34,787 nucleotides of DNA, from the UHGV virus genome UHGV-0075096; one strand, written 5' to 3'. Shown here piece after piece: positions 3,808 through 34,787 of the stretch (positions within the stretch are counted from its first letter, which is position 1; each line of letters begins with the position of its first letter). The notes beneath the pieces were generated by a model. That model had not been told where the DNA came from. It did no database searches and saw only the letters and a list, made by a program, of their open reading frames with translations. This DNA comes from a virus. The translations under genes and the position numbers were made by a program.

Positions 3808-4425
3808 TTATTTTATCGTCAGAACAACGCGGCCTATGATTTTTATGTCGTCAATTCCGCAATCAAATGCCATACCAACACCGCTAACTCTGACTTTTCG
3901 TACCGGAATCCGTGTAAGAGTGCGGACGCTTGTTTTTCCTTCAACTTCAACCAACCAATCATCGTCATAAACTTCAGAATAAGACTGGTCAACAATGTAC
4001 TGAATAAGGCCATCCAGAACACAAATCGGTTGTTGCGGTAAGGGCTTGCCAGGCAGGAAGATGACTTTATCAAGCATAAGTGTGCCAGCGTCATAGAGTT
4101 GGCCATCAACAATCTTGCTGCGCGGCATTTTGAGTATGTCTAATTCATCATCATTAAATTTACGTCCCTGTCCTGTTGCCAGCCACTCCAGATTAGCGCC
4201 TGTTTCGGCTACGCATTTCACGACAATATCTGCCGGGAAAACTCCACGCTTGTAGCGTGAAGAAAGAGAACTGGCTGCCATGTCCAGATGTTCCGCGAGC
4301 TGTAACTTCTGCGTAAATCCGTAAGCCTCGATCACCCTGTCAAGAATCGGTGTGCTATCTACGTTTAGGTCGATTTTAAATGTGCTCATAGCGAATCCAT
4401 AAGTCTCGATTCGAGAAATTGCCAT
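3808..4425 (-). CDS. 186-type CI immunity repressor
   Basis: About 205 aa with an N-terminal HTH-like segment (EAYGFTQKLQLAEHLDMAASSLSSRYKRG) in the position and orientation of 186 cI, co-directional with int. Start is uncertain: ATG at 4425 chosen, alternatives GTG 4431 and ATG 4389. Confidence 0.7.
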   Translation of the reverse strand: MAISRIETYGFAMSTFKIDLNVDSTPILDRVIEAYGFTQKLQLAEHLDMAASSLSSRYKRGVFPADIVVKCVAETGANLEWLATGQGRKFNDDELDILKMPRSKIVDGQLYDAGTLMLDKVIFLPGKPLPQQPICVLDGLIQYIVDQSYSEVYDDDWLVEVEGKTSVRTLTRIPVRKVRVSGVGMAFDCGIDDIKIIGRVVLTIK

Positions 4426-5471: not shown

Positions 5472-5900
5472 ATGGCGATTAGCCAGGAACAGCAAAAGCG
5501 CGGGCTGGAGCATTTAAAACAGATCCGCCGCAAATACTTCAGCAAAAGCAGCGAGGCCGCTGAATGGTGGGACAACTTAACACCGGAGTGGCGCGGCGTA
5601 GTGCTTCATGCTGCTGCGGTTACATCTGGTACCGGGGCATTTAAAGCCCATTTAAGTAAGTGCTGCTGGCGGGAGCTTTATGACCGCCTGGGCTATCGGG
5701 ACATGATTCAACTGCGCCAGGGCATTTCACGGGCGCGGTTAACGTTTGAAGGTTTCGGCAGTTTACGTGACAGCGATTTTTCGAAGCGCACCGCGAACCG
5801 CCCGATCAAAAAAGTACATCCCATTTATAGCAGTGGCGGGGTGCAGATGGTGATCGCGCCGCATATCGTCCATAAGTTCCAGCAACAGGGGAATCACTAA
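5472..5900 (+). CDS. hypothetical phage early protein (142 aa)
   Basis: An internal ATG of ORF 5277..5900 is preceded by a consensus AGGAGG RBS (5462-5467); the upstream part of the track ORF overlaps the cII end and the 57-aa ORF and is probably not translated. Confidence 0.6.
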   Translation: MAISQEQQKRGLEHLKQIRRKYFSKSSEAAEWWDNLTPEWRGVVLHAAAVTSGTGAFKAHLSKCCWRELYDRLGYRDMIQLRQGISRARLTFEGFGSLRDSDFSKRTANRPIKKVHPIYSSGGVQMVIAPHIVHKFQQQGNH

Positions 5901-6301
5901 TGACCATTATTTCCGTTGAGGGCAAATCGTTGGGGGCAGAGCTGGCTGTGTGGGGCGTCCCGCATAACTACGCATTAGCGTTTGCAGAGAAAAGCACCAG
6001 TAAAAATGGGCGTATCGCTTTGCATCCGTTCTTCTTCAATGACACTGAACACATGACAAATCCGCGTCACTGGCTGGCGATCAATGCTGCTTTCTGGTGC
6101 TGCGTGTATCGCGAAGCGGAAAGCAAAGAAGCCCAGATAGAAGCGCTGGCGGGGATTCGTGCAATTTTCTATACAGCCGGGGCATTGGGAGTTGGCGAGA
6201 TAAAAGCGCTGATCCAGGAGTGGTGGCGGACAACCTATGAGCTGCACCTGATTCCGGCTCCGAACTACTCAGCCGCCACAGTACAACCCACTTTTCACTA
6301 A
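5900..6301 (+). CDS. hypothetical phage early protein (133 aa)
   Basis: ORF whose start overlaps the previous stop (TAATG), suggesting translational coupling in the early operon. Confidence 0.55.
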   Translation: MTIISVEGKSLGAELAVWGVPHNYALAFAEKSTSKNGRIALHPFFFNDTEHMTNPRHWLAINAAFWCCVYREAESKEAQIEALAGIRAIFYTAGALGVGEIKALIQEWWRTTYELHLIPAPNYSAATVQPTFH

Positions 6302-6368
6302 TTAACAGCCTGAATTTTTTGGCCACGGTTCAAGTGGCCGGGGATTCTTTTGCCTTAAGGAAACCAAA

Positions 6369-6602
6369 ATGCACATGACACGTCAGGATTTACCCGCAAC
6401 AAAATCAGGCACCGACCTGCTGGCCATGCTCACCAAAGCCACGCAGGAAGGTAAAGCCGCAGTTGCTGATCTGTGTTCCACCCGTCTGGATAAGCTGGCC
6501 ACTCATGCGGCCAATGAAGGTTTAAGCGCAACGGAAATCGTTGAGTTAATCCGCGAAGAAGCCGCAGCGATTTGCAGCAAAGGCGGTGCGGCATGGCAGT
6601 AA
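6369..6602 (+). CDS. hypothetical phage early protein (77 aa)
   Basis: ORF with an AAGGA RBS upstream; it follows a hairpin (GGCCAC-N7-GTGGCC, about 6322-6340). Confidence 0.45.
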
Positions 6603-6922
6603 AAATTCATGCGGTAAAAATTGCGCCAAAATATCTTGATGCAGTAGTGGCTGGTCAGAAAAAGGCCGAGCTGCGAAAAAACGATCGCGGGTATAAAACC
6701 GGTGATGTTCTTTCATTGTGCGAGTGGAAGCACGGGAAATACACCGGGCGAGAGTGGGCGGCAGTTATCACCCATGTTTTGCCGGTGAATGAAATTATCG
6801 CTGATACCGAAAATTGGGTGGTTTTATCTATCCGTTCGCTGTCACCGCTTGAAGTGCTGGAATACATCATTTCAAACGGTGTAACAGAGTCGTTAGTTGG
6901 CGGAGGTCAATATGGCCGTTAA
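6593..6922 (+). CDS. hypothetical protein, possibly ASCH/DUF3850-like
   Basis: 109 aa from the internal ATG ([40 protein letters not shown]...), a pattern reminiscent of small ASCH-fold phage proteins; overlaps the upstream gene end and the dam start. Confidence 0.4.
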
Positions 6923-15296: not shown

Positions 15297-16001
15297 ATGG
15301 CACTTTCCCCCGCGCAGCGTCACAGCCAGCGTATTGCAATGGAACAAAAGCTGAAGCGCAGCCAGGCACTGGAAACCGCGGAAAGTATGCACCTGCTGAT
15401 CAGGGCGCTGGAAACGGATGTGGAACACGTTCGAAGTCTGCCTACCATCGCCGATCGCGTCGAGTATAAACGCGATGTGCTGTTGCCGCGCTGGGTTCCC
15501 ACTGTGGAAGCCTATCTGGAGAGTGGCCAGGTGTATGCAAATCCGGTTTTCGCCTGGTGTGTTATCTGGCTGTTTGACGTGGGCGATCTGGATAAGGCGC
15601 TGGACTGGGCTGACATTGCTATCAGCCAGCAGCAGGCAACCCCGGATCGGTTACGCAGCAATTTTCCCACTTTCGTGGCGGATACGATGCTGGCATGGGC
15701 GCAGGAAACCGCAGGGCGTGGGGAAAGTGTGGAGCCTTATTTCACCCGCACGTTTGAGCGGGTGGCAAACACCTGGCGACTGCATGAGCAAGTGACGGCC
15801 AAATGGTTCAAGTTTGCTGGTCAGGAGTTGCTACGCAATGACGATGGCCAGAAAACGGCGGCGGGCGTGGATGATATTGAAACGCTGGAAAAGGCCGATC
15901 AGCTGCTGGCTATTGCAGAAAAACACTACTCAAAAATTGGCGTCAGAACGGCACGGCAGACGATTGCCGCTCGCATCCGAAAATTGACAACACAAGGATA
16001 A
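15297..16001 (+). CDS. terminase small (endonuclease) subunit (P2 gpM homologue)
   Basis: 234 aa, third gene of the O-N-M-L head operon. Confidence 0.82.
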   Translation: MALSPAQRHSQRIAMEQKLKRSQALETAESMHLLIRALETDVEHVRSLPTIADRVEYKRDVLLPRWVPTVEAYLESGQVYANPVFAWCVIWLFDVGDLDKALDWADIAISQQQATPDRLRSNFPTFVADTMLAWAQETAGRGESVEPYFTRTFERVANTWRLHEQVTAKWFKFAGQELLRNDDGQKTAAGVDDIETLEKADQLLAIAEKHYSKIGVRTARQTIAARIRKLTTQG

Positions 16002-16007
16002 CAACAA

Positions 16008-16154
16008 ATGAAAGAAAGCCATTTACAAGGTGCACATACCCATACCGTGGGGGCACATAGCCATTCTCTGGGTGGTGCACATACCCATACCGTGGGTGCA
16101 CATAGCCATTCTCTGAGTGGTGCACATACGCACACTTTTAATACTGAGCAGTAA
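16008..16154 (+). CDS. His-rich repeat micro-protein (48 aa, 12 His)
   Basis: Hand translation: MKESHLQGAHTHTVGAHSHSLGGAHTHTVGAHSHSLSGAHTHTFNTEQ; AAGGA RBS 8 nt upstream of the ATG; built on a 45-bp tandem repeat; below the track cutoff. Confidence 0.4.
   Translation: MKESHLQGAHTHTVGAHSHSLGGAHTHTVGAHSHSLSGAHTHTFNTEQ
16029..16136 (+). repeat. 45-bp tandem direct repeat, about 2.4 copies
   Basis: Unit GGTGCACATACCCATACCGTGGG(G/T)GCACATAGCCATTCTCTG(G/A)GT; copies differ at 2 positions; in frame with the micro-ORF. Confidence 0.85.
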
Positions 16155-16250
16155 ACGACTACCGCAAGCCAGGCGGACGCGGTGGAGGGCAGAACACCTT
16201 GTGTGTAACTGCGCCGTGGAAACCGGCCAGTCCGCCTTTTCGGGGGATTT

Positions 16251-16703
16251 ATGTTTAGCGGAAAGCCGCTGGATTATCAGGATGAACCGCTGACCAATAA
16301 CGGATTCTGGCCAGACCTGAATCTGAAGGATTTTCAGGCGCAGCGGTCACTACCGCCAGATATTGACGCTGACACCATCAGCCAGGCGCTACTTGCGGCG
16401 GTGGCGGAGGTGAATGCGGAGCTGGAAAACGTGGAAGCCAGCTGGAAAGCGAAAGGCAACACGCTGGCGGCAGAGGTACCAGGCGTAAAAATGGGCGGAC
16501 TGAACAGCCTGTGCGCCCAGTATATGAAGGCCGTTTTTGCCAGGGCAAAAGCGGATCTGCTGGGGGAGTTTGCCACCATCGGGCGGCGTGATACCCATCC
16601 GGGACAGGAAAGCATGGAAACCCGTGCGGGGTTACTGGCTGAAGCATCGGTGGTGATCCGCCGTATGAAAGGGCTGAAACGGGCAACGGTGAAAAAAGTA
16701 TGA
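16251..16703 (+). CDS. head completion/stabilisation protein (P2 gpL homologue)
   Basis: 150 aa, last gene of the head operon. Confidence 0.75.
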   Translation: MFSGKPLDYQDEPLTNNGFWPDLNLKDFQAQRSLPPDIDADTISQALLAAVAEVNAELENVEASWKAKGNTLAAEVPGVKMGGLNSLCAQYMKAVFARAKADLLGEFATIGRRDTHPGQESMETRAGLLAEASVVIRRMKGLKRATVKKV

Positions 16704-26725: not shown

Positions 26726-27312
26726 TGACTTTTAAAATGAGTGAAACCGATCAAGCAGTTACTGTTTATAACCTGCGTTCCGACACGAATGAGTTTATTG
26801 GTTCGGGGGACGCTTTTATTCCCGCACATACCGGACTGCCAGCCAACTGCACCACAATAAAACCACCGGTAATCAAAGCAGGGTTTGTGGCAATTTTTGA
26901 TTCAGAGAAGCAAAGATGGATTTCCCGTGAGGATCATCGTGGCGAGGTGGTGTTTGATACAGAAAACGGTAATGAACTGGTGATCACCGAGCCAGGCGCT
27001 TACCCGGAAGGGACAACCACGTTAGCACCGGCTAATGCCTGGCAAAAATGGAATGGTAAGGCGTGGGTGGATGATGCGGAGGCCATGCGAATTGCATTAG
27101 TCAGCGAGGCAGACGCCGAAAAGAAAAGACTGCTTAAACAGGCCAATGACGCCATTGCCACATTGCAGGATGCCGTTGATTTAGACATGGCAACCGAAGA
27201 AGAAGCATTGCTGCTTACCGCATGGAAAAAATACCGCGTTTTACTGAATCGTATTCAACCGGAAGATGCGCCAGAAATTGTGTGGCCGGAGGTGCCTGGA
27301 AATGTGGCGTGA
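26725..27312 (+). CDS. tail fibre assembly protein (Tfa; P2 gpG-like)
   Basis: 195 aa ending with the motif typical of Tfa chaperones (WKKYRVLLNRIQPEDAPEIVWPEVP); directly downstream of the fibre gene. Confidence 0.8.
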   Translation: MTFKMSETDQAVTVYNLRSDTNEFIGSGDAFIPAHTGLPANCTTIKPPVIKAGFVAIFDSEKQRWISREDHRGEVVFDTENGNELVITEPGAYPEGTTTLAPANAWQKWNGKAWVDDAEAMRIALVSEADAEKKRLLKQANDAIATLQDAVDLDMATEEEALLLTAWKKYRVLLNRIQPEDAPEIVWPEVPGNVA

Positions 27313-28027
27313 AGCACGTCTGGCCTTCACGGATTCAGTTGCTGCGCTGAACTGTTCGATCGTCCCTGCGCATCCGTGGATTTATGGGCTGGGACAGCAG
27401 ACAGCGAACGGGGCATATCTCAGCCCGGTTAATGCCGTTCGCTATCTTGCTGAACGCCTGGCCGGAACAGGGGGGAATGCGGATGTGGTGATTATGATGG
27501 TCACCGGACAGACGCAGGAAAACTTTATGGCCAGCCTGAATAACCTGGTCGGGATTTTCCCCGCCCCGGCATTCACGCAGGTCAAACGGCTGGCGCAATC
27601 CGCCGCAGTGCTGGCTATTGAAAAGATGCAGATTCCGGCGAAAACCGCCGCTGCGTTACCTGCGTCCATTCCGCTGTCTGTATCAACCAGCAGGGCAGCT
27701 TTATCTGCTGCGGCAATCAGCCAGGCACAAAAGGCGGCGGGTGCCGGGTTTGATATCGAAGGGCTGAAAAAACAGCTGGGCGAGTTCACGCAACTGCGTG
27801 ACCAGCTTATCAGTGATGTGGCCAGCGGCCTGAATGATTTACAGGGGAAGAGTGCCAGAGCGTGGGTTTTTACTGCCAGCGGAGACACCGGCACCACGTT
27901 ACTGGAACTGGTGAAGGACATTCCGCAGCAGTCTGCCGTTTACACCGCAGCCATGATGCTGGTTGGCGATAATCTTGATGGAATAAAGGGAATGATTCAT
28001 GACTTCGATCCCGACACTGGCGCTTAA
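27302..28027 (+). CDS. hypothetical protein (241 aa) downstream of Tfa
   Basis: Internal ATG with a GGAGG RBS; Ala-rich; no family recognised by eye; occupies the position corresponding to the P2 Z/fun cargo locus. Confidence 0.5.
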   Translation: MWREARLAFTDSVAALNCSIVPAHPWIYGLGQQTANGAYLSPVNAVRYLAERLAGTGGNADVVIMMVTGQTQENFMASLNNLVGIFPAPAFTQVKRLAQSAAVLAIEKMQIPAKTAAALPASIPLSVSTSRAALSAAAISQAQKAAGAGFDIEGLKKQLGEFTQLRDQLISDVASGLNDLQGKSARAWVFTASGDTGTTLLELVKDIPQQSAVYTAAMMLVGDNLDGIKGMIHDFDPDTGA

Positions 28028-28544
28028 TGGCGAGGCTATCCAGCTGAAAAACATGCGGGTGACTGTTTCACAGCAATTTCAGGATAAAGATCAGTCCGGC
28101 CAGACCAGCGCCACAACAAAATCAGAGCAGGGAGCAAAGGGAAAGGAACTGCGGATCAGCGGTGAAATACCTTTTAAACAGCCTGAAATACTGAAGCGTA
28201 TTTTTGAGCTTGCCAGCGCTACCGATGCCAGTGGTAATCGTCAAAAGTACCGTGTGGCGCATGAAGTTGCCCGTGCTGTTAATTTTCGTGAAGCAACGTT
28301 CAGCGGAATGCTGGATGCACCCCAGCAGGACGGGAAAATGTCCTGGCTGGTGACGTTCACACTGGCGGAACATATCAGCGTGCAGGAAAAGCGAGAGGCC
28401 AGAGCAACAGGTAAGACGACCGCAAAAAAACAGACTGCCGGTAGTGCGGGACAGGCCGGTGGCCAGTCTGCCGGAGAAGATGAAGAAAAACTGACGTGGT
28501 TTGAACGCAAGGTGCTGAAGCCCGTCAATGATGCTTTGGGTTAA
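27999..28544 (+). CDS. hypothetical tail-associated protein (181 aa)
   Basis: ORF coupled to the downstream hub/spike gene (TAATG overlap); start uncertain because it overlaps the upstream gene by 29 nt. Confidence 0.45.
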   Translation: MTSIPTLALNGEAIQLKNMRVTVSQQFQDKDQSGQTSATTKSEQGAKGKELRISGEIPFKQPEILKRIFELASATDASGNRQKYRVAHEVARAVNFREATFSGMLDAPQQDGKMSWLVTFTLAEHISVQEKREARATGKTTAKKQTAGSAGQAGGQSAGEDEEKLTWFERKVLKPVNDALG

Positions 28545-30247
28545 TGATGAAACCAGTAAAACGCCTTTACCTTTCAACGGATGAAGTTCACCTGGTGGAT
28601 GCCAGCCTGGTACTGGAGCTGAACAGCTGCGGCCGGGGCTTCATCACCGCAGAGACAACAACCGATTACACCGGAAAACTGGTGCGGCTGGATGTAGGGT
28701 ATACCGATCTGCTTTTGCGCTGGTTTACGGGGTACGTGGAGCGATCGCAGCCCGCAGAAAACGGTTTTCAGCGTCTGTTCATTCGTGAGCTGGTAGGTGT
28801 GTTTGAAAGGATGTGGCCGTGCTCATTTCAACATCCAACTTTACGCGAGGTTGCCAGCTGGCTGGAAGAAAACAGTGGTATCTCGGTCAGTGTGCCTGAT
28901 GCACAGTACAGCGATACCCCCATCCCACATTTTACCCATAACGGTACCGGCTATCAGTTGCTGAACAATCTGGGAAGGGCGTTCAGTATCCAGGATTACA
29001 TCTGGTACCAGTTGCCTGATGGTTCGCTTTACGTCGGTGGCGCAGAAAAGTCACTGTTTGCCGGTCGTCCCGTAGAAATCCCGTCAGAGTTCAGCCAGGG
29101 GGCTGCTGGTGGTAACTCTGTGACATTACCAGTGATCCAGACTATGCGGCCAGGGGTGGAGATGAACGGTGAACGCGTGACTAAAGTTCACCTGACTAAT
29201 GACACGATGGCGATCACATGGACGCCGAGAAACCGCGCAACGGGTAAACCTTTGCAGAAAACACCGGCGCAACGGCAGATTGAAAGCCATTACCCGGAAC
29301 TGGCATCCGGGCTTCATTTGCCAAAGACGGCCAGAGTCGTGGCGCATTCAGAGCCAGTAAAAAGCGGTAACTTTGCCGATCCCTTCCGGCCACGTTACGC
29401 CGTGGACGTGCAACTGCTTGACGCAGACGGAAACCCGGACAATCAGACGCCTGTTTACTCAGCGGTGCCGCTGCCGGTACCAATGGCCGGGAATGATTCA
29501 GGTATGTTTCAGTTCCCGCCTGAAGGGACGCTGGTTGAGGTCGCATTCACAGGAGGCAGACCGGATAAACCCTTTATCAGGCAGACGCTGCCGGATGGCA
29601 CCAGTCTGCCGGACGTTAAACCCGGTGAGCAATTACAGCAGCAGCGGGAAGAAGTATCCCTGAGGGTGACTCAGGCGGGTGACTGGGTAAGGCAGACCGA
29701 TCAGACCATCAGCGAAACATCAATGGTGCGAACCGTAAAAGCCGATACAGAACAGCGCGAACTGGTCAGCCGTGAAACCACGGTGAAAGCCACGGATAAA
29801 ACCACGGTACTGGGAACCGCCACATTGCTGGCCGGAGCCATCCAGCAGGTAAGCGCCGGTGATTATAGCCAGGCGGTGAAAGGTAACAGGCTGGCCAGTA
29901 TTGAAGGAAACGAAGAAACGGACATAGCAGGACAGCAGTCCACTAAAGTGGGCGGTGCTGTAGCCGTGGAGGTTGGCGAAAGTCTGACAGAGAAGATTGC
30001 CGCACTGCGTAAATCAGTGGCTGCTGGCGGTCAGCAGGTCATGGGGGCAACTGTCCATATTGGCAGTGAGAGCATCAACGCCCTGACCATGATGCTGGAT
30101 ACCATTGATTTACTGGCAGAGCTTGCGCAGCAATGCGCGAACCATTCGCACCCCACCGTTGGAACTCCAACCAATGCCGCCGCGTTCACACTGACGGCGA
30201 CGAAAGCCGGGCAGACCCGGAGCAAATACCAGAATATAATTGCCTGA
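28544..30247 (+). CDS. putative baseplate hub/central spike protein (gpD/gpV-like)
   Basis: 567 aa, last gene of the tail module and followed by a strong terminator; the C-terminal region contains CANHSHPTVG (an HxH motif as in spike apex domains). Assignment is inferred from position and motifs. Confidence 0.45.
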   Translation: MMKPVKRLYLSTDEVHLVDASLVLELNSCGRGFITAETTTDYTGKLVRLDVGYTDLLLRWFTGYVERSQPAENGFQRLFIRELVGVFERMWPCSFQHPTLREVASWLEENSGISVSVPDAQYSDTPIPHFTHNGTGYQLLNNLGRAFSIQDYIWYQLPDGSLYVGGAEKSLFAGRPVEIPSEFSQGAAGGNSVTLPVIQTMRPGVEMNGERVTKVHLTNDTMAITWTPRNRATGKPLQKTPAQRQIESHYPELASGLHLPKTARVVAHSEPVKSGNFADPFRPRYAVDVQLLDADGNPDNQTPVYSAVPLPVPMAGNDSGMFQFPPEGTLVEVAFTGGRPDKPFIRQTLPDGTSLPDVKPGEQLQQQREEVSLRVTQAGDWVRQTDQTISETSMVRTVKADTEQRELVSRETTVKATDKTTVLGTATLLAGAIQQVSAGDYSQAVKGNRLASIEGNEETDIAGQQSTKVGGAVAVEVGESLTEKIAALRKSVAAGGQQVMGATVHIGSESINALTMMLDTIDLLAELAQQCANHSHPTVGTPTNAAAFTLTATKAGQTRSKYQNIIA

Positions 30248-30259
30248 CCATGATAACAC

Positions 30260-30282
30260 GCCCGCATAATGCGGGCTTTTTT
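30260..30282 (+). terminator. rho-independent terminator of the tail operon
   Basis: GCCCGCA-TAA-TGCGGGC hairpin followed by TTTTTT, 13 bp after the stop at 30247. Confidence 0.85.
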
Positions 30283-30692: not shown

Positions 30693-30724
30693 AAAAAAGC
30701 CCGCGACATCAGATGTGGCGCGGG
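30693..30724 (-). terminator. rho-independent terminator downstream of the glycosyltransferase-like gene
   Basis: On the minus strand, hairpin CCCGCGCCACATC-A-GATGTCGCGGG (one 2-nt bulge) followed by TTTTTT; 40 bp beyond the stop at 30764. Confidence 0.65.
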
Positions 30725-30763: not shown

Positions 30764-31480
30764 TTACTTTAAACTGAGTTTAAAATTTTTGAATTTACCA
30801 TACAGGGTATCGCGTACAGAAAAGGAAGGAACCCAATTGAATCCTGTTCGCCATGGGCGAGGACTACCGTGAAAGCATACAACTGAAACATCATCAGGAA
30901 CTTTGCCAGTAGCATAATCTGATGCCAAGTCAGGGTTGTAACCTATCATTTTACGTGTGGCTATATGGCATTTGTAACTAACAACAGATCCGGGAATTAT
31001 ATCTTGCCACAATACAGGTTTCATGACGCTACCCAGAAACCCCTGATCACCCCATTTATCTTCTGTTTGGCATTCATGCATATTTTTTTCGGGGTCAGTC
31101 CAGAACGCATCCCAAACATATTGTTTGATAGACGCAGGAATGAACATAATGGATGAGTTAACCCTGGAAGGGTGGTTAAACTCCCGCAGCATAGTGAACT
31201 CTTTCGCCGCATCAAAGATTTTGATATCACCAGTTATGACAACATCAACGTCAAAATAAAGCAGATCCTTATCACCTATTACCGGATGGTTTGGATTAAA
31301 AAGCTCAATCTTAGACCACCAACCTGGAAGGTTGTGCATTAACGGTGCGGTTTCAACACCAGGGATACTTCCAGCATCAGTTAAGCAAATTGAAGGTATG
31401 CCTTTAAATTGGCTATGCAGCCATTGTGCGTGTTTGGGGGTAAATTCTTTACCGCATTTAAGGACGGATACAATCAGCAT
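30764..31480 (-). CDS. putative GT-A fold glycosyltransferase (GT8-like motifs)
   Basis: 238 aa; DxD-type motif (LLYFDVDVVITGD) and a C-terminal H-x2-G-x2-(K/R)-P-W motif (FHGSPRPW) characteristic of retaining GT8 enzymes; GC visibly lower than the prophage core. Confidence 0.45.
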   Translation of the reverse strand: MLIVSVLKCGKEFTPKHAQWLHSQFKGIPSICLTDAGSIPGVETAPLMHNLPGWWSKIELFNPNHPVIGDKDLLYFDVDVVITGDIKIFDAAKEFTMLREFNHPSRVNSSIMFIPASIKQYVWDAFWTDPEKNMHECQTEDKWGDQGFLGSVMKPVLWQDIIPGSVVSYKCHIATRKMIGYNPDLASDYATGKVPDDVSVVCFHGSPRPWRTGFNWVPSFSVRDTLYGKFKNFKLSLK

Positions 31481-31660
31481 ATGGGAATCCCATTCTTTAG
31501 AGCAATAGTGTGCATTTTTTGAACATCGGCAATACTAAAATAAATAGTCAGGGCATAATTTTCTTAGGTAAGAGTCATGATGCCTCATGCCATTCCTTAC
31601 GTAAAGCTAGGCAGACTCAGCATAATGAGGGGACAAAAAGGGGACGCTGACCACTACAAA

Positions 31661-31689
31661 CAAAAAAGCCACTCCGTCAGAAGTGGCTT
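31661..31689 (-). terminator. rho-independent terminator (minus strand)
   Basis: On the minus strand, AAGCCACT-N8-AGTGGCTT hairpin followed by TTTTTT. Confidence 0.6.
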
Positions 31690-31843
31690 AATTATATGAT
31701 TATAAAGCTAAAATTTGGTGGCCCCTTGGACTTGAACCAGCGCCCGGGCGATTATAAGTCTTATGGTGTAACCTTTTGATATTTATATATAAATTTTATT
31801 TTTATGTGAATTTTAAGGATCTCTAACCGCTTTATTTTTGGCT

Positions 31844-31874: not shown

Positions 31875-32093
31875 TTGAGTTAGTCTTTAAAACTGAAATT
31901 GATCAGCCATAGCGTTCATAGGTAGCTGCGTATGCATTAACGTTTTTTAGGTGGTGGGGCTACTTGCTGCGTTTGCTGCGTTTGCCGTGGTGGTTGATAA
32001 CCATTGTTCTGCTGATTTGGCCTACTTGATGGTTGATATCCCTCATTTATAGGTTGCCAGCCATCATATTTAGTATTGTTTGCCGGTTTTTCT

Positions 32094-32744
32094 TCAGCCA
32101 TTTTTTACCTCACTATTGTTGGGAGAATGTAATTTTACCTCAATAAACTCAACACTTTCTATTTCATTAGTCAATATTATTATGCCTAATGTATCAGCTA
32201 GTTCGTGATCGAAATCGCCATTCTCATCAAGCGCCCAATGTTTCTCAAGATAGATTTGTTCGGGTTCTGGACTATTGGATGCAAATGAGTCACTTCCATA
32301 AAAACCACCATATTTTTTACCGTTTTTTAGTGTTACCAATACCCAGCAGCGTTGTCTGGTTGAGAAGAAGTAGTCCCAAGAGCGCCCTATAGGGTGTGGA
32401 AGAATATTTTTGACTTTTTCCCAGTTACGAATTTTTAGCAATGCAACAGGTAATAGTACAGGTATTACAATTAAAACTAAAAAGTAAAAAATGTAATATA
32501 AAATAGGGTGTTTCAAAAAAATGTCATTTGTTTCAATTAGATAAATTGGTATTAAAAGAAATGAAAAATTTATGCAACTATATGAAACAACGTCAATTAA
32601 AACTTTTGATGTATCCAAATCAATTGATGGGTGAAATAGTCTGTAAACTCTCATGCTGATAAATCCGGGCATAATGAACAGTACAAATAAAAACAATTTC
32701 CCCTTCTCTAAAATGTCCATTTTAATTCCTTTTGCATAAATCAA
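32094..32744 (-). CDS. uncharacterised membrane protein (3 predicted TM helices plus a roughly 100-aa soluble C-terminal domain)
   Basis: 216 aa; hydrophobic segments [26 protein letters not shown] and [20 protein letters not shown]; its ATG overlaps the upstream stop in an ATGA coupling; AT-rich codon usage. Confidence 0.6.
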
Positions 32745-33766
32745 TCATCTTTATTCATCAAATCATGGTGATATCCACAAACACCTCCAAAATCTTGTTC
32801 GTCTTGGGAAAGTGTTGTGCCACATATATAACATTCATTATAGTCAACTTCATAACCACACCACCGACATTTTTGCTCAGCTAGAATAAATGTATCATGG
32901 TTACAGTTAAAACATTCTTCATAAGTCGGTTCATCGCCATCAGGAGGCCAATAAAAAAACTCATCTTCAAAAACCTGCATAAGCAAAGGCGTAAATAAAT
33001 TGATATTCCCGCATGCAACGCACAAATACTTAAAATCGCTTTCAAAATCTTCTACTGTCAGACCTTCTTCTAAACTATCTTGTGAGGCTTTTATAAGTTT
33101 AGAACCACATTTATCGCAGCAACATTCGGGTAAAAATTCCATCATGCCTTCTGGAATACCTGCATACTCCCATGTTGACCTACACTCATATAATTTCGAA
33201 TTATAAAAAGTTTTGTGTTCCAGCATTGTACTCCAGGAACTGCCTAAAACATCTTGTGGAATTTTATCAAGTTCATTTGTTATGAAACTTTCAAGAACTG
33301 GAAATAAATCGGCGACAAAACCAGCAAGCTCGCCGAAAGTGTTTTGAGGATGTAAGTGTTCAAGATGATTTCGGCAATCCTGAAGTTTTTCAATGGCTGG
33401 CCAATCAACTTTTATGTTGAATTTATGAAAGCGCTCCTTTATGCCACAAACATCAATAGTCGATTTTTTAAACTTTCCTTCAGGTTTCCATTCTACCCCA
33501 CCTTTCCCATCGGGGTGGGGAAGCATTTTAGACGGTGGGTTATGTATTAGCACATACGCATGCTCAGGCGTGTCAACAGATTTGGCGATTTTATATTTGA
33601 ATAGTAATAATAAACCAGCGTAAAGATTACGTATGGATGAAAGAGTTCGCAATGAGTTATCAGGTTGTTGGGATAACTGGAAATCTTCAATCCCAAGTTG
33701 TATTGAAGCAATTGCGTTGTCATATAACTTATCCGCATCTAAGGTTAGTGAGGTTGTGTTACTCAT
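32741..33766 (-). CDS. uncharacterised protein with C-terminal multi-CxxC zinc-ribbon-like region
   Basis: 341 aa; C-terminal third contains CCCDKC, CVAC, CFNC, CRWC, CYIC and CGYHH; N-terminal domain contains an R-N-x3-H motif (RNHLEH); AAGGA RBS. Confidence 0.6.
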
Positions 33767-33840
33767 TGTTTGCTCTATCCTTAGTAAATAAAGTTGGATT
33801 ACATATTATGAAAAAAAGTTGGTGCATTCAATCAGTCATT

Positions 33841-34737
33841 TTAAAAGTTTTTCCCTGACCGCGCTAATGCTTTTTCTTCGTTAAAGTAACCAAGTATATA
33901 ATCTCTTATCTCTACACCTAATTTTTCACTTAAGTAAGGGATGTGGTATTCTGAAATATAAAATTGAATGTTGCAATTATCTATGAAATCTTCTTCATAA
34001 AGTTCATGTTTTATGACTGGAGTGTAATTATATCTGTTTTGAAAGATAACATATGGAATATTAAAAATGTGTTCTTCTTTATAGGTTTTATTTTTGAATT
34101 TACTTAACAAAATATCTAACCCGTCAGGATTTGAACTTAGTAAATCTTCAACTTCTTTACGATGTTTTTGTTCAAATAAATCAGTTAAGATATTTCTGTA
34201 GATAGGATTGATAGTACAAAGCGTAGTGGTTTTATCTAAACGATGTAATGGTAAAACTATCTCACCATCCAAAAGTCCCAAGAATGCTTTATTGTGTTCA
34301 TCATCGGTAGATCTTTCCAGTTGTATTGTGCAGTCATTATCTTTCAGCTTTAATAATATGGCTTTGGCAAAATGAGAGTAATCATTGAAACTGATTTTCA
34401 ATAGCTGTATTTTTTTAAGATCATTTCTTCGTTTTTCTTCTTCTTTTTTATCTAATGCTAGTTTGTTCTGTCTGACGATAAGTTTTTCTTTAGTAAATCG
34501 AATGAATAAGTCTACTATACCAAATAGTATGGATGATAGTAATGCACCAAGTGAAAAGCCTATAATTGTTATTAATGTAATAGAAAGTTCATTAGGTATT
34601 TTAAATTGGCCTAGTTTGGGTTCTACTAAAACCCAGCAACCGATGATTGAGCCAGCAATAATTAATAATCTTAGAGAAGAACGGAACGAAACTAAGTTAG
34701 TTAGGTGTGATAAAACGGTAGATAACGGGTCAGTCAT
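33841..34737 (-). CDS. uncharacterised membrane protein (2 N-terminal TM helices, Lys/Glu-rich coiled-coil-like linker, soluble C-terminal domain)
   Basis: 298 aa from the ATG at 34737, which has a strong AGGAGA RBS 7 nt upstream; TM segments LLIIAGSIIGCWVLV and ITLITIIGFSLGALLSSILFGIV; about 33% GC. Confidence 0.6.
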   Translation of the reverse strand: MTDPLSTVLSHLTNLVSFRSSLRLLIIAGSIIGCWVLVEPKLGQFKIPNELSITLITIIGFSLGALLSSILFGIVDLFIRFTKEKLIVRQNKLALDKKEEEKRRNDLKKIQLLKISFNDYSHFAKAILLKLKDNDCTIQLERSTDDEHNKAFLGLLDGEIVLPLHRLDKTTTLCTINPIYRNILTDLFEQKHRKEVEDLLSSNPDGLDILLSKFKNKTYKEEHIFNIPYVIFQNRYNYTPVIKHELYEEDFIDNCNIQFYISEYHIPYLSEKLGVEIRDYILGYFNEEKALARSGKNF

Positions 34738-34787
34738 GTAGGTGTCTCCTGACTTTTGGCTACAAATTATCACATTTTAGAGAAAGT

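Follow-up and report, generated by a model that had tools for sequence, protein, structure and literature searches.

A PmgQ-family, GT8-like glycosyltransferase carried as autonomous cargo at the end of a P2/HP1-like prophage of Escherichia coli: a putative modifier of host envelope glycans

Several prophage accessory genes found near the attachment (att) site or the tail end alter receptor or serotype, among them those for GtrABC (O-antigen glucosylation), the GT2 enzyme TarP (wall teichoic acid) and the acetyltransferases NeuO and Oac. Encoded in the waa cluster, WaaJ, WaaI, WaaO, WaaR and WaaT (about 330 aa in length) are cytoplasmic-face enzymes that act on the lipid-linked core of lipopolysaccharide (LPS). 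In mycobacteriophages, glycosyltransferase (GT) genes lying beside capsid genes have been proposed to have a role in virion glycosylation. Phages P1 and P7 encode PmgQ and HdmD, members of a family already annotated 'glycosyltransferase' in PHROGs and in the RefSeq entry of P1; the P1 operon pmgN-pmgO-pmgP-ppp-pmgQ has a C1 operator, through which it is repressed, and a late promoter. Here we describe a new member of this family, a prophage-borne accessory glycosyltransferase encoded in a 34,787-nucleotide stretch of DNA (UHGV virus genome UHGV-0075096, hereafter the window), and we weigh what it might modify.

The gene resembles each of these systems in part. It shares its position near the att site and the tail end with the GtrABC, TarP and NeuO/Oac genes, which belong to other enzyme families. 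GtrABC requires three genes and works in the periplasm with a lipid carrier, whereas the gene described here encodes one cytoplasmic GT-A enzyme. An earlier note on this DNA had set it apart from the GtrABC cassette, and rightly so: it is separately transcribed single-gene cargo, and neither a GtrA flippase, a GtrB GT2 enzyme nor a GT-C transferase was found among the called genes and Pfam matches of the prophage right arm and cargo. With the Waa enzymes it would have in common the CAZy-type fold, and these enzymes serve as the model for the mechanism proposed below; unlike them, it is prophage cargo between a spike gene and attR, and no Waa-specific sequence link was seen. Distant relatives of PmgQ lie between capsid and head-tail connector genes and are accompanied by methyltransferases, as in the mycobacteriophage case, yet, to the extent tested, no relationship links the families, and our gene is outside the structural operon.

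30764 to 31480, minus strand: coding sequence of the PmgQ-family (PHROG 1962) GT8-like GT-A glycosyltransferase, 238 aa, ATG start

The open reading frame (ORF) was as the earlier note had given it, in strand, start and length. The exact protein is present in 785 blocks of the assembly collection and is labelled hypothetical by PGAP. Single-sequence searches against Pfam, NCBIfam and PADLOC gave no matches, while PHROG 1962 ('glycosyltransferase') matched over the full length (4.2e-81; residues 1-223 on profile positions 1-224 of 230). Among tblastn relatives were the temperate phages Chlobot (76% identity) and Chuche (52%), as well as P1 PmgQ and P7 HdmD at about 39.5%. The last two are homologous over residues 1-221 and show the same K, DxD, GDQ and CFHGxPRPW motifs. 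PmgQ differs in being without the cationic C-terminal helix described below and in lying in a C1-controlled, late operon with PmgO, PmgP (both MptE-like) and Ppp, while the GT gene here is solitary and at the prophage end. An exhaustive profile search put the size of the family at 1,682 clusters (50% identity) at E<=1e-30 and at 4,161 at E<=1e-10. The earlier note had missed both that the protein is a PmgQ relative and that such relatives occur in head modules.

To place the fold, a profile search proved necessary, as a single-sequence search of the PDB returned only spurious D14 esterase matches (E of about 0.05). A profile built from a 69-sequence alignment matched the structures of Gat1 (7.5e-8), glycogenin-1 (about 1e-5) and GlyE (3e-3), a GT-A fold of the GT8 type. 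The Pfam GT8 model (PF01501) did not match our protein at E<=10, so it falls below the gathering threshold, and it matched 18 of the 69 relatives weakly (best E 7e-4). The prior description of a GT8-like retaining GT thus stood at the profile level and failed at the level of Pfam. Taken together, these sequence comparisons support the protein as a GT8-like GT-A enzyme of a large phage family that extends beyond the current Pfam GT8 model, for which a retaining mechanism (alpha transfer) would be expected by family. Compared with Gat1 (6MW5/6MW8), glycogenin-1, GlyE (5GVV) and LgtC (1G9R), it aligns at the DxD, GDQ(G) and K/R-P-W motifs, yet identity is 11-16%, the protein is smaller (238 aa) and the histidine column is occupied by Cys202.

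31244 to 31252, minus strand: DxD motif D77-V-D79, predicted metal and nucleotide-sugar binding site, aligned to the DxD of glycogenin and Gat1
31043 to 31051, minus strand: G144-D145-Q146, counterpart of the glycogenin GDQG and LgtC DQD active-site motif, aligned to glycogenin GDQG
30851 to 30877, minus strand: C202-F-H204-G-S-P-R208-P-W210, C-terminal GT8-like motif with a shifted histidine, read from the sequence

These motifs go beyond chance: in the 69 homologues their residues either never vary or show conservation of 90% or more. Invariant positions in the alignment are K57, D77, D145, S168, G205 and P209; near-invariant are D79, G144, Q146, C202, F203, H204, P207 and W210, with D79, G144 and Q146 conserved at 90% or more. 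The DxD motif had been recognised before, and it is there. The C-terminal motif had been given as HxxGxx(K/R)PW, a form that is absent, the actual one being C-F-H-G-S-P-R-P-W; CFHGxP[RK]P is found in nearly all of 120 homologues. In the profile alignment to glycogenin and Gat1, Cys202 falls in the canonical GT8 histidine column, His204 lies at +2, R208-P-W falls on K-P-W, and the loop that leads to P-W has two residues fewer than in solved GT8 enzymes. The proposal that both motifs sit on GT8 catalytic positions therefore survives for DxD and R-P-W; at the histidine, the third metal ligand of GT8 enzymes, the column holds a cysteine, and His204 and Cys202 are both candidates for the ligand.

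28544 to 30247, plus strand: last tail gene, a gp5/V-like baseplate spike (Pfam Phage_base_V and Gp5_C matches)
30260 to 30282, plus strand: tail operon terminator, a strong hairpin with a T-run (z -3.0) that closes the spike gene
30693 to 30724, minus strand: intrinsic terminator of the GT gene, a CCCGCG...CGCGGG hairpin with U6 (RNA fold, z -2.3)
31481 to 31665, minus strand: 5' untranslated and promoter region of the GT gene
31666 to 31689, minus strand: terminator of the upstream cargo unit, which shields the GT gene from read-through
2668 to 2682, unstranded: attL core GCTATATTATAAAGC, from comparison with the K-12 empty site

The gene is low-GC cargo, an autonomous and separately transcribed 'moron' that occupies the tail-proximal end of the prophage. 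It runs opposite to the tail operon, from which it is separated by the terminators of both units; an internal mismatch had hidden its own hairpin from a simple terminator scanner. The GC content of the gene, 0.416, is lower than that of the structural genes (0.523), and its GC at third codon positions (GC3) is 0.372, against 0.583 for the spike gene. Placement past the tail operon terminator with a terminator of its own, the opposite strand and the lower GC had all been described previously, and all were borne out. The window itself is E. coli DNA, running from ompX and opgE into a P2/HP1-like prophage that has integrated between the genes mntS and mntR. When set against the empty site of K-12, it shows an att core of 15 bp, GCTATATTATA(T/A)AGC, and attR was inferred from locus L002 and the same empty site to lie about 120 bp past the window end. 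From these positions of attL and attR the GT gene lies within the prophage, as had been thought, in the stretch of low-GC cargo that separates the tail module from attR.

The prophage has undergone two independent internal deletions, spanning window positions 5633-28697 (L002-type) and 15416-28675 (L004-type). Both end within the spike gene, near 28676-28698, and both removed morphogenesis genes. The GT gene is intact and at least 99.9% identical in both remnants, which cannot make virions, and together with the neighbouring cargo block it is kept at 99.95% identity or more. The L002-type remnant is the commonest context among the contigs read.

30770 to 30817, minus strand: clade-specific cationic C-terminal helix, residues 222-237 (AlphaFold2 (AF2) model; 29-residue tail with net charge +5)
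L107 2824-3597 and L108 2919-3614: CysE-like acetyltransferase in the GT slot of sibling prophages

We compared the closest relatives of the gene with the rest of the family, defining as its clade the nearest 35 of the 120 homologues (identity of 49% or more), and as the rest the other 85. All 35 carry a C-terminal tail of 29-44 residues with a net charge of +3 to +11; the tails of the other 85 measure 4-24 residues, with charges of -4 to +3. The C-terminus of LgtC, basic and hydrophobic, serves membrane attachment. A homologue of the PmgO-like partner protein that accompanies distant relatives (PHROG 4603) was absent from the window (phmmer, E<=1) and also from the clade loci L027-L036. Five or more unrelated backbones have a clade member, in varying orientation, next to tail-fibre or Tfa genes where the prophage ends: this P2/HP1-like prophage, the P2-like L018, the lambdoid Chlobot together with L031/L032, the Mu-like L109, and Chuche. 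Of the GT unit, only the coding sequence is common to the different phage backbones. Regions upstream of clade members, searched for a conserved promoter, were unrelated to each other and often started past a terminator.

The position itself is shared with another enzyme. In sibling prophages at the same att site, with tail genes 89-95% identical, a CysE-like hexapeptide acetyltransferase (PHROG 2154) occupies the exact GT slot, and in three P2-like loci (L033, L035 and L036, at about 5800-6800) this acetyltransferase family lies directly beside the clade GT. In Shimwellia blattae and Vitreoscilla, the clade is represented by a gene that stands by itself in the chromosome, without a phage gene closer than 7 kb. 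Co-occurrence of the GT with one kind of tail-fibre tip was considered too, and rejected as evidence: three GT backbones share a 53-66% identical tip and Tfa, but some 34 siblings with tail genes 89-95% identical are without the GT. As a separate observation, P2-like prophages from E. albertii and E. coli (L019 and L022, 8355-9497) have fragments of a GT4 (Glycos_transf_1) gene just downstream of the clade GT, in a variable region ahead of host genes.

We tentatively favour the reading that the enzyme modifies a host envelope glycan, either the LPS core or a lipid-linked O-unit, in an event of lysogenic conversion, and would stop a little short of calling this probable. Because the gene is kept in defective remnants and occurs as stand-alone chromosomal genes of the same clade, its substrate is argued to be a host molecule; the cationic tail, the tail-fibre adjacency and the acetyltransferase sharing the slot point to a membrane-proximal surface glycan. 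Receptor-blocking genes typically lie beside receptor-binding protein genes, and glycosylation and acetylation, the classic pair of phage modifications of surface glycans, commonly serve superinfection exclusion (PMC11990801). In the mechanism that we propose, a soluble or peripheral-membrane, metal-dependent GT-A enzyme would be produced in the lysogen from its own promoter, and its clade-specific cationic helix would dock it on the inner face of the cytoplasmic membrane. D77xD79, His204 (or Cys202) and G144-D145-Q146 would bind a divalent metal and a UDP-hexose, the presumed donor. An alpha-linked hexose would then be added to a lipid-linked envelope glycan, presumably LPS core-lipid A or an undecaprenyl-linked O-unit, and the changed surface receptor or serotype would lead to superinfection exclusion or lysogenic conversion. 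For this clade, a putative role in LPS modification and receptor masking is the best reading and a plausible one.

A number of observations weigh against envelope modification. The sequence kinship of the enzyme, as judged from profile matches, is closer to the protein- or glycan-directed glycogenin, Gat1 and GlyE than to WaaJ and LgtC, which the earlier note had named as examples; LgtC was not a sequence match at E<=10 in the family profile search. The wider family is found in head modules in most of the environmental contigs examined. The C-terminal helix is only moderately amphipathic (hydrophobic moment 0.32) and, modelled with high confidence by AF2, it may pack on the domain rather than on a membrane. 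No convincing match to a sigma-70 consensus was found upstream of the GT gene (31481-31665), so that expression in the lysogen is presumed. Retention in remnants could merely reflect recent deletions, the acetyltransferase argument is one of guilt by position, and every argument from context is an indirect one. Finally, functional data were not found for any family member in the literature on PmgQ, HdmD and phiNP, and P1 pmgQ is non-essential and still labelled 'putative morphogenetic function' (PMC10695390).

The family context deserves attention of its own. Distant relatives of the GT (37-43% identity, about 200 aa) are without the C-terminal extension. Once P1-like loci and those of the gene's own clade are set aside, 13 of 19 environmental IMG/VR loci have the GT in a structural operon, 3' of a capsid or portal gene and 5' of head- or tail-completion genes, and the same arrangement was seen in three loci fetched from assemblies. 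The commonest order is terminase, portal, protease, major capsid, a protein of about 150 aa, often an FkbM methyltransferase, the GT, and a head-tail connector. The 150-aa partner falls in the same PHROG as P1 PmgO (4603, 'sialyltransferase', weakly MptE-like), of which PmgP is a paralogue. In phiNP, the GT and its partner form a pair between the lysis genes and terS, and the GT is commonly fused to MptE-like and O-methyltransferase domains. This context suggests a multi-enzyme glycan module active in lytic growth, whose most natural target, on the mycobacteriophage model, would be virion proteins. In a side observation on the partners, PmgO and PmgP of P1 (L015 4144-5330) and the protein of about 150 aa behind the capsid gene of the environmental phages (L014 7020-7490; P0163) form one MptE-like / 'sialyltransferase' group (PHROG 4603 and 2111), which repeatedly adjoins, or is fused with, PmgQ-like GTs and O-methyltransferases and has the look of a conserved glycan module of phages.

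A bolder proposition can be made. PmgQ-like GT8-type enzymes, PmgO-like MptE-type transferases and O-methyltransferases might constitute a widespread and so far unrecognised virion-decorating, glycan-building module in tailed phages of Gram-negatives, P1 included. The enterobacterial clade would then have branched off from it, shed the partners, acquired a helix for membrane targeting and been reused as a single-gene, non-Gtr means of LPS remodelling. We regard this full scenario as rather doubtful.

That our enzyme itself acts on the virion, as a lytic-growth enzyme glycosylating the tail fibre, the spike or the capsid, seems to us unlikely. The structural-operon loci, with their PmgO-like proteins and frequent FkbM methyltransferases, would be read in this sense, as would the C1-repressed, late-promoter operon of P1, the position of the phiNP gene and the domain fusions. 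The nearest solved relatives also target proteins or protein-linked glycans, and the GT gene adjoins tail genes. It does so, however, antisense to the late operon and insulated by terminators, and it is not embedded among capsid and connector genes; the partner genes are missing. Besides, the gene is intact in remnants that have lost head and tail genes, the clade includes stand-alone chromosomal genes without a phage, and the approximately 34 siblings with nearly the same tail genes manage without it.

31937 to 34773, minus strand: separate low-GC cargo block comprising a 54-aa ORF, a DUF6338 protein, a PADLOC PDC-S64 candidate and a 310-aa ORF
32094 to 32744, minus strand: DUF6338 gene of the cargo block
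32741 to 33766, minus strand: PADLOC PDC-S64 candidate defence protein, 341 aa (match 2.5e-47)
33841 to 34773: 310-aa ORF of the cargo block

No better placed is the idea that the target is another host molecule, a cytoplasmic protein or a small molecule, and that the GT is a defence, anti-defence or host-physiology factor in a prophage cargo and defence hotspot; this too we hold to be unlikely. The region is variable and low in GC, with the PDC-S64 candidate and the DUF6338 gene nearby; GT8 includes the protein modifiers glycogenin, Gat1 and GlyE, and stand-alone chromosomal clade members would suit such a role. The GT protein itself, however, had no PADLOC match, and the recurrent adjacency to tail-fibre and acetyltransferase genes points instead to surface glycans. 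Locus L007 retains the GT without the DUF6338/PDC-S64 block, and elsewhere the GT has unrelated neighbours; because of L007, the block (31937-34773) is separable from the GT and shows no functional tie to it. The DUF6338, PDC-S64 and 310-aa ORF genes are very low in GC (0.29-0.37). A third att copy, which could have marked the block as a separately integrated element, was looked for and none was found, so that this candidate was dropped.

The remaining alternative, a transferase that adds sugars to hypermodified phage DNA, has precedent in the GT8-like phage enzymes GT14I and GT43I, which put secondary sugars on 5-hydroxymethylcytosine (5hmC)-linked glycans (bioRxiv 10.1101/2023.12.21.572611), but we rejected it as very improbable, since the window holds no precursor pathway for 5hmC or 5-hydroxymethyluracil (5hmU) and the one methylase that it encodes is Dam-like (N6-adenine), the genes scanned included no C5-methyltransferase, TET/5mYOX or thymidylate-synthase-like gene, and such a role is at odds with occurrence in prophage remnants and as solitary genes of bacterial chromosomes.

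If envelope modification is true, many prophages of E. coli, Citrobacter, Salmonella and Klebsiella would possess, as an alternative to GtrABC, a cytoplasmic means of LPS change that needs one gene only, with a bearing on phage host range, on serotyping and on the choice of therapy phages. The analysis also provides a concrete and testable hypothesis for P1 pmgQ and pmgO, which have carried the label of a 'putative morphogenetic function' since genome annotation, and it draws attention to a family that comprises no fewer than 1,682 sequence clusters and is without a Pfam model of its own.

31713 to 31773, minus strand: tRNA-Ile-like remnant upstream of the GT gene (BLAST, 81-84% identity over 61 nt to annotated E. 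coli tRNA-Ile genes)

Two further features of the locus are worth recording. The tRNA-Ile-like remnant sits directly upstream of the terminator that precedes the GT gene; it was not called by ARAGORN or Rfam, and it may be what is left of a former mobile-element or integration junction, or of a phage tRNA. At the other end of the matter, the integration core GCTATATTATATAGC is palindrome-like, 15 bp long and located in the short mntS-mntR intergenic region. Insertion of the prophage puts mntS and mntR, two divergent genes of manganese homeostasis, about 32 kb apart, and may alter their regulation.
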